This document shows, piece after piece, positions 3,018-20,934 of a DNA stretch of 64,000 nucleotides (position 1 is the stretch's first letter; each line of letters begins with the position of its first letter). A model generated the notes under the pieces. It saw nothing but the letters and a program-made list of their open reading frames with translations. It was not told the origin of the DNA and ran no database searches. Made by a program: the position numbers and the translations under genes. Source of the DNA: Escherichia coli (lineage in GTDB: Bacteria; Pseudomonadota; Gammaproteobacteria; Enterobacterales; Enterobacteriaceae). The DNA lies in the NCBI RefSeq assembly GCF_003334405.1, contig NZ_QOWM01000001.1; one strand, 5' to 3'.

Positions 3018-3677
3018 ATGCCAGCTTTAGATTTGATTCGACCGTCTGTCACCGCTATGCGGGTGATTGCCTCCGTTAACGCCGATTTTGCGCGTGAACT
3101 GAAATTGCCGCCGCATATTCGTAGCCTCGGTCTGATTTCTGCCGACTCCGATGACGTCACCTACATTGCCGCTGATGAAGCGACCAAGCAGGCGATGGTG
3201 GAAGTGGTGTATGGCCGCTCGCTATATGCGGGCGCTGCACACGGCCCGTCACCGACTGCCGGTGAAGTGCTGATTATGCTTGGTGGGCCAAACCCGGCGG
3301 AAGTGCGTGCAGGTCTGGATGCGATGATTGCGCATATTGAAAATGGCGCAGCTTTCCAGTGGGCTAATGACGCGCAAGATACGGCATTCCTGGCACATGT
3401 AGTTTCGCGTACCGGTTCTTATCTCTCATCAACCGCCGGGATCACGCTTGGCGATCCGATGGCGTATCTGGTGGCACCGCCGCTGGAAGCGACCTATGGC
3501 ATTGATGCAGCCCTGAAGTCTGCCGACGTACAGCTGGCGACCTATGTCCCGCCACCGTCTGAAACCAACTACTCGGCAGCATTTTTAACCGGTAGCCAGG
3601 CAGCGTGTAAAGCAGCCTGTAACGCCTTTACCGATGCAGTGCTGGAAATCGCGCGTAATCCAATCCAGCGTGCGTAA
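3018..3677 (+). CDS. eutL: bacterial microcompartment shell protein EutL (219 aa)
   Basis: 219-aa ORF tightly coupled to eutC (9-bp gap); expected position in the eut operon. Confidence 0.92.
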
Positions 3678-8141: not shown

Positions 8142-8201
8142 CGGCACTTTTTGGTGAATTTGCACTCCAAGCAACGTTATTGAATAACCAAAGGAAGTGA
8201 C

Positions 8202-8788: not shown

Positions 8789-9772
<984 letters not shown>

Positions 9773-9794
9773 GCGTTTCTGATTCATTGATTAA

Positions 9795-9824
9795 AGGCCA
9801 GGCAGTAACATTACTGACTGGCCT
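9795..9824. repeat. stem-loop copy 1 (ggccag-g-cagtaa-ca-ttactg-a-ctggcc) directly after the yfeX stop
   Basis: Hairpin seen in sequence; an imperfect copy (2 mismatches over about 28 bp) recurs at 9977-10006, on the far side of the BIME. Confidence 0.7.
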
Positions 9825-9849
9825 CAGATTGTTGACCAAGTGCGCGTTG

Positions 9850-9955
9850 TACACGCCGGATGCGGCGTGAACGCCTTATCCGGCCTACGAAATCGTGCTA
9901 ATTCAATATATTGTGGGCTCCACGTAGGCCTGATAAGCGTAGCGCATCAGGCAGT
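9850..9955. repeat. BIME: two inverted REP (repetitive extragenic palindrome) units
   Basis: REP-type palindromes gccggatgcggcgtgaacgccttatccggcctac and gtaggcctgataagcgtagcgcatcaggc; the six-frame ORFs here are spurious. Confidence 0.85.
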
Positions 9956-9976
9956 TTTGCGTTTGTCAGCACTCTC

Positions 9977-10011
9977 AGACCAGCCAGTAACATTACTGAC
10001 TGGCCTTTTTA
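9977..10011 (+). terminator. intrinsic terminator (hairpin copy 2 plus T-run) for yfeX-direction transcripts
   Basis: Hairpin gaccagccagtaacattactgactggcc followed by TTTTT; sits just before the yfeW stop on the opposite strand. Confidence 0.6.
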
Positions 10012-11316
10012 TTACTTCTGCTTTAACGCCGCATACACCTGATCAACTACCCAACCATAAGTTGCAATCGGCAACTGACCGCTTTCGAACATATTGGGAT
10101 TCTTTTGCGGATCGGCAACCGGCGAATGTGGCTTGTTGCTTAACATCACAATCGTCATATGATTCACCGGATCGATAACGGTCACCGTTCCGGTCCAGCC
10201 AGTGTGACCGTAGGTTTGCGGGCTTGCCAGCGTGCCAAACGTCGGCGTCATGGTGGCATTACCATTCACGCGCCAGCCGAGGCCAAAAGTGGCATCTTCC
10301 TTAGAGCTGGTGGTGAACATCTTCACCGTTTCCGCATTGAACAGCTGCACATCACCATAGCCCCCGCCGTTCAGCATCGTTTGCATTAACACCGCAATAT
10401 CGCCGGTATTGGAAAACAAACCTGCGTGCCCGGAAACGCCGCCCATCGAATAAAAGGCTTTTTCATCGTGCACCTGACCCCAGAGAGTGGAGGTGCGGAT
10501 ATTCGGGAAATGGATCACGCCATCGCGGGTATTGCCGTTCAATTCCGTGGCGGCAATTTGTTGCGGTTTAAAGCCTTTCAGCAGCGGGTTAAATACCGTA
10601 TGTGTCAGGCCGAGCGGGCGATAAATCGACTCTTCAACATAGCGGTCAAGCGGCTGACCGGTAACCGACTCGACGATAAATCCAAGCAGCATATAATCGA
10701 CATCGCTGTAGATATGTTTGCTGCCGGGCTGATATTCCAGCGGCGTGCGCTTGATCATCTCCAGCGTCTGGCCTTTATCCTGGGAATATAACGCGCCCGC
10801 GACCGCTTTATTCGGGTATTGCGGATCTGCCGGGAAACCGCCGCTGTGATGCAGCAGGTCAGAAATCCGCAGGGTGTTTTTGCCTTTAATGGTGTCATTT
10901 GGACTATCGGCAAACCCCGGAATATATTTCGCAATCCGATCGTCAGGATGCAGTTTGCCTTCGCTCATCAGCTTTTGCAGGGCGAAGTTCGTGGCGTACA
11001 TTTTGGTGTTTGAGGCCAGGTCATACAGCGTCCCGGTGGTGGCTTTGACAGGCTGTTCCATCAACACGCTGCCATCGTACTTTTTCGCCGCTCCCCAGGC
11101 TTTGCGATACACAATCTGATTATCTTTAATGATCAGCAGGTTTACGCTGGGATAACCGACATCAACTTGCTGGCTAATCCAGCGATCCATCTGGTTAAGC
11201 CGTTCGACGTTAAACCCTGCTTTCTCTGGCGAGCTTTCTGTCAGAACAGGGTATTTTGCGGCGCTGACGCTACAACTAACAGCCAGCAGAGAAAGATAGA
11301 GCATTGTCCGTTTCAT
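10012..11316 (-). CDS. yfeW: penicillin-binding protein 4B, beta-lactamase-family DD-peptidase (434 aa)
   Basis: SxxK active-site motif (ASNTK) in the translation; start at 11316 lies 4 bp downstream of the murP stop; the track ORF is extended to 11403. Confidence 0.9.
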   Translation of the reverse strand: MKRTMLYLSLLAVSCSVSAAKYPVLTESSPEKAGFNVERLNQMDRWISQQVDVGYPSVNLLIIKDNQIVYRKAWGAAKKYDGSVLMEQPVKATTGTLYDLASNTKMYATNFALQKLMSEGKLHPDDRIAKYIPGFADSPNDTIKGKNTLRISDLLHHSGGFPADPQYPNKAVAGALYSQDKGQTLEMIKRTPLEYQPGSKHIYSDVDYMLLGFIVESVTGQPLDRYVEESIYRPLGLTHTVFNPLLKGFKPQQIAATELNGNTRDGVIHFPNIRTSTLWGQVHDEKAFYSMGGVSGHAGLFSNTGDIAVLMQTMLNGGGYGDVQLFNAETVKMFTTSSKEDATFGLGWRVNGNATMTPTFGTLASPQTYGHTGWTGTVTVIDPVNHMTIVMLSNKPHSPVADPQKNPNMFESGQLPIATYGWVVDQVYAALKQK

Positions 11317-20746: not shown

Positions 20747-20779
20747 GGATTAATAGCATCGGAGACTGATGACAAACGC

Positions 20780-20885
<106 letters not shown>

Positions 20886-20934
20886 AAACAAAGCGCACTT
20901 TTTTAACAGTTGTTGCTGCCGACAAATGCAGTAT

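Follow-up and report, generated by a model that had tools for sequence, protein, structure and literature searches.

Results

The window, a stretch of 64,000 nt of Escherichia coli DNA, contains the convergent genes yfeX (porphyrinogen peroxidase; 8873-9772, + strand), whose 299-residue translation has a match at 100%, and yfeW (pbp4B; 10012-11316, - strand), both placed by the annotation of identical E. coli records. The 239-nt spacer between the two coding sequences reads as a complete BIME-1 element lying between direct copies of a 30-nt terminator-like hairpin that the two genes have in common. The first copy, H1 (9795-9824, arms 9795-9808 and 9811-9824, located without regard to strand by repeat search and folding), starts 22 nt past the yfeX stop codon, is preceded by AAA and has no T-run after it; its sequence is that of the lone hairpin in aligned BIME-free E. 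coli. The second copy, H2 (9977-10006, found in the same way), carries the substitutions G2A and G7C in its left arm and runs into TTTTT on the + strand (10006-10010), which, by alignment with empty alleles, is the T-run that the lone terminator had originally. From the H2 foot it is 5 nt to the yfeW stop codon (10012-10014, - strand). The two copies, AGGCCAGGCAGTAACATTACTGACTGGCCT and AGACCAGCCAGTAACATTACTGACTGGCCT, are identical at 28/30 positions and are spaced 182 nt start to start. An earlier note on this DNA had described a stem-loop after yfeX recurring with two mismatches some 180 bp on, its second copy just before the yfeW stop and followed by a T-run, with two REP units between the copies, and in each of these particulars the description is borne out. 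Within the 64 kb a 26-nt hairpin pattern allowing up to 3 mismatches matches H1, H2 and, in reverse, the near-palindromic H1, and nothing else; the number expected from 100 shuffles is 0.00.

Both copies form a stem-loop, with arms of 14 nt and a loop of 2-4 nt. Calculated RNA folding energies are -18.6 kcal/mol (H1) and -11.3 kcal/mol (H2) on the + strand, and -19.7 and -20.8 kcal/mol, respectively, on the - strand. The two substitutions in H2 are asymmetric in their effect on the strands, weakening the hairpin of the + strand RNA and leaving an unbroken 13-bp stem, G.U pairs included, on the - strand. A simple terminator scan called neither copy, because the stem has an internal mismatch. 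The designation of the repeat as a terminator hairpin in the earlier note stands as regards the stem-loop fold but not as regards the scan, which called only the perfectly paired Citrobacter ortholog described below. Folded as single-stranded DNA, the whole of 9790-10012 forms one long hairpin (-56.6 kcal/mol, z -8.7).

The gap between H1 and H2 is filled entirely by the 152-nt BIME-1 (9825-9976), all parts of which are given here on the + strand. A left outer motif, CAGATTGTTGACCAAGTGCGCGTTGTACAC (9825-9854), conserved in paralogous BIME-1 copies, is followed by a Y-type REP, or palindromic unit (9855-9888; inverted repeats I2 and I5), which ends in CTAC and so has the iREP orientation on this strand. 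The long (L) linker of 35 nt (9889-9923) is conserved in all aligned paralogs and leads to a Z1-type REP (9924-9952; identified by inverted repeats and paralog alignment), which begins with GTAG. The right outer motif, AGTTTTGCGTTTGTCAGCACTCTC (9953-9976), completes the element, the family consensus ending in ...CTC exactly at the start of H2. Together with H1 the element makes up a 182-nt repeat unit (9795-9976), shown by Tandem Repeats Finder and by comparison of units to vary in copy number in Escherichia. The Y and Z1 types were assigned from similarity to loci listed as 98-nt REPs and from the consensus sequences of the two types. Within the L linker, AATTCAATATATTG (9900-9913) differs by one mismatch from the IHF consensus WATCAANNNNTTR and is a putative IHF site.

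The ends of the BIME-1 family were set with an alignment of 5 and then of 14 paralogous loci, among them the copy between cysM and yfeS (REP174; 20762-20908, - strand), which has 88% identity to the yfeX-yfeW element over positions 6-152 of the latter. The family begins (T)CAGATTGTTGAC... and ends ...GTCA(G/T)CA(C/G)TCTC, and H1 and H2 adjoin these ends to within about 1 nt, with no spacer. The duplicated segment is the entire stem-loop, symmetric about its dyad. The element has the composition of a BIME-1, Y and Z1 palindromic units in inverted orientation with CTAC/GTAG tags, and aligns with 13 paralogs; it is extragenic and present once at this site in the window, but not in Escherichia sp. 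E1V33 (two copies) or MOD1-EC7003 (about seven). Its REP doublet is predicted to fold into a long single-stranded DNA hairpin, as in a REPIN, and its termini are imperfect inverted repeats (9/12). Positions 9854-9951 correspond to REP176 in the REP table for MG1655 (bioRxiv 10.64898/2026.03.23.713779 supplement). All REP-derived Rfam matches of the element are sub-threshold, including that of the Y REP to naRNA4, and the L linker scores 27.3 bits against ES036/CssrF, below the gathering score of 37.6. Per E. coli genome the Y REP matches at some 40 places or more. At cysM-yfeS the BIME-1 is preceded by a 15-nt imperfect copy (12/15; 20916-20930) of its own right end (20766-20780), which may be what is left of another tandem copy.

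To compare alleles, a 501-nt query was run against 5,426 complete E. coli genomes. It was found entire in 1,400, and in most of the others the place is exactly 182 nt shorter. This and three further queries agree on about 1,400-1,410 occupied genomes (~26%); ~48% are empty with yfeW intact and ~26% empty with an internal yfeW deletion, i.e. ~74% are without the 182 nt. In the aligned empty alleles (EC93, O157:H7 and two divergent strains) there is a single hairpin, AAAGGCCAGGCAGTAACATTACTGACTGGCCTTTTTATTA, which joins the left context of H1 to the right context of H2. The comparison with BIME-free genomes proposed in the earlier note has therefore come out as it foresaw, with exactly one hairpin and alleles differing by exactly one hairpin plus BIME; the state it named as contrary, two hairpins without a BIME, was not found, a metagenome pattern scan yielding 13 unrelated chance matches. 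Nor was an H2-type hairpin found at empty sites, which is uninformative because the crossovers that would produce one (within the first 7 nt) are expected to be rare. Every occupied E. coli allele sampled spans exactly one unit. Occupied alleles are at least 99.6% identical, whereas empty ones are diverse (92-99% identity to K-12), and some occupied and empty alleles have flanks identical over 251 nt. The hairpin and junction sequences are restricted to yfeX-yfeW in E. coli, with 1,410 genomes matching at no more than two places each.

Several strains depart from these alleles. About a quarter of complete E. coli genomes (e.g. BL21, Ecol_732 and the ST131 strain EC958) have the internal yfeW/pbp4B deletion; they keep the single hairpin, and of yfeW there remain 45 nt at the 3' end and a 5' piece that is annotated as a pseudogene. 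In E. coli PEC1020 (record positions ~480-1185) an IS200C, of the IS200/IS605 family, directly follows the T-run of the lone yfeX-yfeW hairpin; BIME-1 ends, too, are found at positions of this kind, a hairpin foot with T-run. A record labelled E. coli SCPM-O-B-8794, with a yfeX 94.7% identical to that of K-12, has a different BIME-1 directly between yfeX and murP (3401-3560), and neither the hairpin nor yfeW.

The locus was also retrieved via YfeX, with each species represented by a single genome. Citrobacter sp. R56, Awk 4 and NCU1 each have one orthologous hairpin directly 3' of yfeX, AAAGGCCAG[T/C]CAGTGAT[G/A]TCACTGACTGGCCTTTTT, and no BIME; that of R56 is a perfect 16-bp stem (-29.3 kcal/mol) and is called by the terminator scan. 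As the Citrobacter ortholog stands alone, this comparison dates the hairpin before the BIME at yfeX-yfeW. Two further records from the search are of doubtful origin: the metagenome-assembled genome 'Citrobacter sp. HRGM_Genome_0066' has yfeX contigs of both E. coli and Citrobacter type and is a mixed bin, and on a contig assigned to Chryseobacterium sp. 18061 the encoded YfeX shares 91% identity with the E. coli protein, suggestive of contamination.

Other Escherichia carry the element at the same site. E. whittamii has hairpin-BIME-hairpin, Escherichia sp. E1V33 two units and a closing hairpin (H-B-H-B-H; 2.2 copies by Tandem Repeats Finder) and Escherichia sp. MOD1-EC7003 7.2 units by the same program, a number that may be inexact as this is a short-read draft assembly. 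E. albertii has hairpin-BIME and then a deletion into yfeW; in strain NBRC 107761 (~1110-1125) this deletion, at an ACTCT microhomology, joins the BIME's right end to the interior of yfeW, and both H2 and the 3' portion of the gene are gone. The number of hairpin-BIME units in Escherichia is accordingly 0, 1, 2 or about 7, with a final hairpin always closing the series, and at 0, 1, 2.2 and 7.2 copies the 182-nt unit is a variable-number tandem repeat. The units of the MOD1-EC7003 array have a lineage-specific substitution in common and differ from one another by 2-9 nt. The BIMEs at this site in other Escherichia are 94.7-97.4% identical to that of K-12, the paralogs only 83-88%, and among species the BIME divergence tracks that of yfeX (92-97.7% identical). 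Close by, the yfeZ-yfeY spacer (window 8142-8201) is empty in K-12 and holds a BIME-1 in three other Escherichia species (records ~1320-1830), with a 5-bp flanking repeat TAACG in two of the three; MOD1-EC7003 has there three tandem units of 130 nt, each including 9 nt of flank.

A second, independent whole-hairpin repeat is present between the convergent genes yfiE and srmB, where a 24-nt direct repeat abuts both ends of a BIME-1, its two copies reading AATGTCGGGATTAAACCCGGCATT and AATACCAGGCTTAAACC(C/T)GGCATT. This BIME-1 is found in 2,525 E. coli genomes, K-12 included, and the others are 176 nt shorter. The empty allele has one perfect hairpin, AATGCCGGGCTTAAACCCGGCATT (-20.5 and -21.3 kcal/mol on the two strands), from which each of the two occupied copies differs by two private substitutions. 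No single crossover between the present copies can therefore yield the empty hairpin, which looks ancestral. The yfiE-srmB alleles support a duplication of the hairpin associated with insertion.

The placement of BIME-1 relative to stem-loops was surveyed at 14 loci, a convenience sample of paralogs found by similarity and of 98-99-nt REPs from a table of REPs near Rho-dependent termination sites. Nine of the latter were added from that table (preprint 10.64898/2026.03.23.713779), with their sequences taken from MG1655, and among these nine a locus-specific stem-loop lies at one BIME-1 end at dacB-obgE, mrcA-nudE, yajD-tsx, gltD-gltF, glpD-yzgL, asnB-umpH, pgm-ybfP and ugpB-livF. Counting as abutment, by a simple stem-loop rule, a hairpin whose foot is no more than about 3 nt from where the element is projected to end, we found hairpins at 12 of 28 junction sides (10 of 14 loci), six at the left end and six at the right, against 11 of 227 control windows from the same loci (Fisher p=1.7e-7). 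The hairpins beside other BIME-1 copies all differ in sequence. Whole-hairpin duplication occurs at just two of the 14 loci and so is not the rule, the flanking repeat being 30, 24, about 5 or 0 nt long according to the locus. For this small, non-random sample the counts indicate that BIME-1 elements in general sit at the feet of locus-specific stem-loops, and the hairpin duplication at yfeX-yfeW can be read as a special case of such hairpin-foot targeting.

At yajD-tsx, occupied in 3,805 E. coli genomes, comparison with the empty allele shows the element directly after the yajD stop codon and directly before the A-run and foot of a hairpin that predates it, and nothing is duplicated. Several paired changes distinguish the terminator hairpin of the occupied yajD-tsx allele from that of the empty one (GCCGGGAATAAATCCCGGC vs GCCGGATATGGAATCCGGC), which suggests that the two alleles have long been separate. 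The mrcA-nudE BIME-1 is fixed in E. coli, and at cysM-yfeS no clean comparison with an empty site was obtained, the gene content differing among other strains. The copy at yidB-gyrB (MG1655 3877437-3877834) aligns over the two REPs and the linker only, the gyrB terminator-like hairpin AAAAAGGGCGGAGATGATCTCCGCCCTTTT taking the place of the left outer motif. No BIME-1 was found in one 50-kb piece of MG1655, and a scan of viral contigs for BIME-1 returned the fepA-entD copy only.

Discussion

REPs and BIMEs are the most abundant repeats of E. coli, and at stake here are the route by which they reach new sites and the way they recognise targets. The yfeX-yfeW and yfiE-srmB loci provide clean pairs of occupied and empty alleles in which the whole host hairpin is duplicated. 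Our preferred account, which we hold to be probable though well short of certain, is an ancient integration at the foot of the yfeX-yfeW hairpin that duplicated the whole hairpin, followed by loss and gain of units through recombination or slippage. The integration would have happened once, in an ancestor of Escherichia. Formally, the duplication would correspond to opposite-strand breaks at the two feet of the hairpin, with the element joined between them and the hairpins, single-stranded at first, completed by fill-in; equivalently, the element could integrate on each strand of an extruded hairpin, with the loops repaired afterwards. Recombination or replication slippage between the hairpin copies would later delete or amplify the unit, deletion giving the exact empty site of most E. 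coli, and such changes in unit number would require repeat recombination or slippage alone and no transposase. The proposal of the earlier note, that a BIME insertion duplicated its target hairpin, gains support from the empty alleles, Citrobacter and yfiE-srmB; the duplication event itself, and how it came about, we infer. Its origin in the insertion event is the most economical reading, and the duplication could also have preceded or followed the insertion.

Since other Escherichia species share this BIME and its site, one old insertion, before the Escherichia radiation, is the most economical reading of the comparisons, and for the same reason many of the empty sites in E. coli are probably secondary precise losses rather than a retained ancestral state. 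Empty sites need not be ancestral, since a duplicated hairpin permits exact loss. The single hairpin that the earlier note supposed to be ancestral is indeed the state of Citrobacter, with no BIME, but is probably not what most of the empty sites in E. coli retain, these being secondary on the reading preferred here. The main observation against an old insertion is how little the occupied E. coli alleles vary, which alone would suggest a young one.

That observation is the core of the argument for a recent insertion in a K-12-like lineage, the single hairpin being the ancestral state retained throughout E. coli. The proposal of the earlier note, taken in its simplest form, amounts to such a recent insertion. 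It would account for the 74% of E. coli without a BIME, for some 1,400 occupied alleles at least 99.6% identical beside empty ones at 92-99% to K-12, and for the flanks shared without difference over 251 nt. Against it, the BIME is found with identical boundaries and hairpin copies in E. albertii, E. whittamii, E1V33 and MOD1-EC7003, which differ from K-12 by 4-8% in yfeX, its divergence scales with that of the flanks, and it is improbable that five lineages independently received one paralog at an identical nucleotide position unless integration is strongly site-specific; we regard a recent insertion as unlikely. We give still less credence to a hairpin already present in tandem, or as one copy for each gene, between whose copies a BIME later entered without duplicating anything. 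Most BIME-1 loci do look like hairpin-foot integrations without duplication, and a tandem hairpin junction would present two feet, but no such H-H state was found (the metagenome scan giving unrelated matches only), the outgroups carry one hairpin, neither copy is separated from the BIME by a spacer, and the coincidence would have to repeat at yfiE-srmB.

Much the same low probability attaches to two insertions, one at the 3' foot (H-B) and one at the 5' foot (B-H), joined by a crossover within the BIME to give H-B-H. This requires three events at each of two loci, neither a B-H nor an intact H-B allele was seen at yfeX-yfeW (the H-B of E. albertii precedes a deletion), and the reciprocal product, a BIME with no hairpin, was not seen there either; in its favour, both feet are used across loci, with six abutments at each end, and an element on both strands of an extruded hairpin would also leave H-B and B-H daughters. 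That the hairpin might belong to the mobile element, a composite of hairpin and BIME moving as one, agrees with what is amplified in tandem. Hairpin and junctions are, however, confined in E. coli to yfeX-yfeW (1,410 genomes, at most two places each), the hairpin is without the BIME in Citrobacter and in 74% of E. coli, and other BIME-1 copies neighbour hairpins of differing sequence, so that a composite seems to us highly improbable.

For the integration itself, TnpA_REP is a candidate. This transposase is reported to act on single strands, to cut on both sides of inverted REP hairpins and to need only C^T (PMC3333891). It is possible, and we put it forward tentatively, that structure guides BIME-1 integration to the feet of terminators and other stem-loops: the REP-associated Y1 transposase could treat an extruded hairpin as an inverted REP and cut at its feet, with strand use and repair then determining whether H-B, B-H or H-B-H results. 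The Y1 transposases of IS200/IS605 type, the REP-associated one included, are described as making no target duplication (PMC3333891, PMC2817692). This expectation is contradicted at yfeX-yfeW (30 nt) and yfiE-srmB (24 nt) and holds at yajD-tsx. A cleavage motif for TnpA_REP at the junctions was considered and rejected. The yfeX-yfeW feet read GGCC^T on both strands, like the iREP-II site and the minimal C^T (PMC3333891), and the junctions at yfiE-srmB and yfeZ-yfeY are without C^T; since those of the second locus lack it, no sequence motif for TnpA_REP is supported. Also rejected was an inverted duplication by template-switch extension of a palindrome, as the yfeX-yfeW copies differ by 2 mismatches in direct orientation vs 5 in inverted, and at yfiE-srmB both loops keep the same polarity. 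Structure-directed integration at hairpin feet, if true, would give elements of this class their first target rule and integration footprint, and it raises the question of terminator hairpins as targets of TnpA_REP. In the literature accessible to full-text search we found no description of hairpin duplication by BIME-1, of tandem arrays of hairpin and BIME-1 or of hairpin-foot placement, and no target rule for REPIN or BIME-1 integration.

The split of the terminator has predicted consequences for both genes. The hairpin of the empty site has an energy of about -20 kcal/mol on both strands, followed by U5 on the + strand and UUUAAU on the - strand. In K-12 the U5 follows H2, with its weak stem (-11.3 kcal/mol), and H1 has no U-tract on the + strand. 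Each of the convergent transcripts in K-12, as can be deduced from the arrangement, would meet a hairpin without a U-tract first, cross the BIME and then reach a hairpin with its own U-tract. The yfeX transcript would pass H1, then the BIME, then H2 (-11.3 kcal/mol) with its U5; that of yfeW would pass H2 in reverse complement (a perfect 13-bp stem at -20.8 kcal/mol, G.U pairs included, and no U-tract), then the BIME, then the reverse complement of H1 with UUUAAU. A region of NusG/Rho-dependent termination is listed just past H2 (window 9994-10108, + strand; MG1655 2549310-2549424; bioRxiv 10.64898/2026.03.23.713779 supplement). The natural alleles with 0, 1, 2 or 7 units are suited to gauging the effect of a BIME within a terminator on termination and on the mRNA stability of both genes.

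The yfeX-yfeW element can be set against several known systems. BIME-1 elements are polymorphic for presence among strains of E. coli, and REPs tend to lie between convergent genes (PMC1187871, PMC3333891). The element agrees with the described BIME-1 (RIP/RIB) in composition, GTAG/CTAC tags, L linker, outer motifs, position in a convergent-gene spacer and presence/absence polymorphism (PMC1187871, PMC3333891). BIME-1 is, however, described as single-copy at each locus and without flanking direct repeats, whereas the yfeX-yfeW element is flanked by a duplicated 30-nt host hairpin, together with which other Escherichia amplify it in tandem. With REPINs, presumably mobilised by RAYT or TnpA_REP (a Y1 HUH transposase), it has in common the inverted REP doublet, the long hairpin and a dynamics of excision and insertion deduced from comparison of strains, and MG1655 carries rayT (supplement table, bioRxiv 10.64898/2026.03.23.713779). 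The mechanism of IS200/IS605 type is described as leaving no target duplication, whereas BIME-1 shows placement at hairpin feet and, twice, duplication of the whole hairpin. In BIME-2 arrays copy number varies between strains and the units at one locus resemble each other (PMC3333891), and in both respects BIME-2 and atypical BIME arrays are like the present one. Their units, however, are REPs and BIME linkers only, whereas here the unit includes a locus-specific terminator hairpin, and its amplification is therefore explained by recombination between hairpins or units with no need of a transposase.

Like a MITE, the element is short and non-coding, with imperfect terminal inverted repeats (9/12) and, at yfeX-yfeW, a flanking direct repeat of the target. 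MITEs, however, combine terminal inverted repeats with a target-site duplication of fixed length, whereas that beside BIME-1 is not fixed (30, 24, ~5 or 0 nt) and, when long, is a whole stem-loop, which argues for a structure-dependent event and not for a DDE transposase with a fixed stagger. As to terminators, 78 REPs are reported to lie within predicted bidirectional ones (preprint 10.64898/2026.03.23.713779). The empty state of yfeX-yfeW resembles a bidirectional intrinsic terminator, a GC-rich stem-loop with an A-run and a T-run between two stop codons. That of K-12, in contrast, is split, the BIME separating the A-run side from the T-run side with a copy of the hairpin on each.
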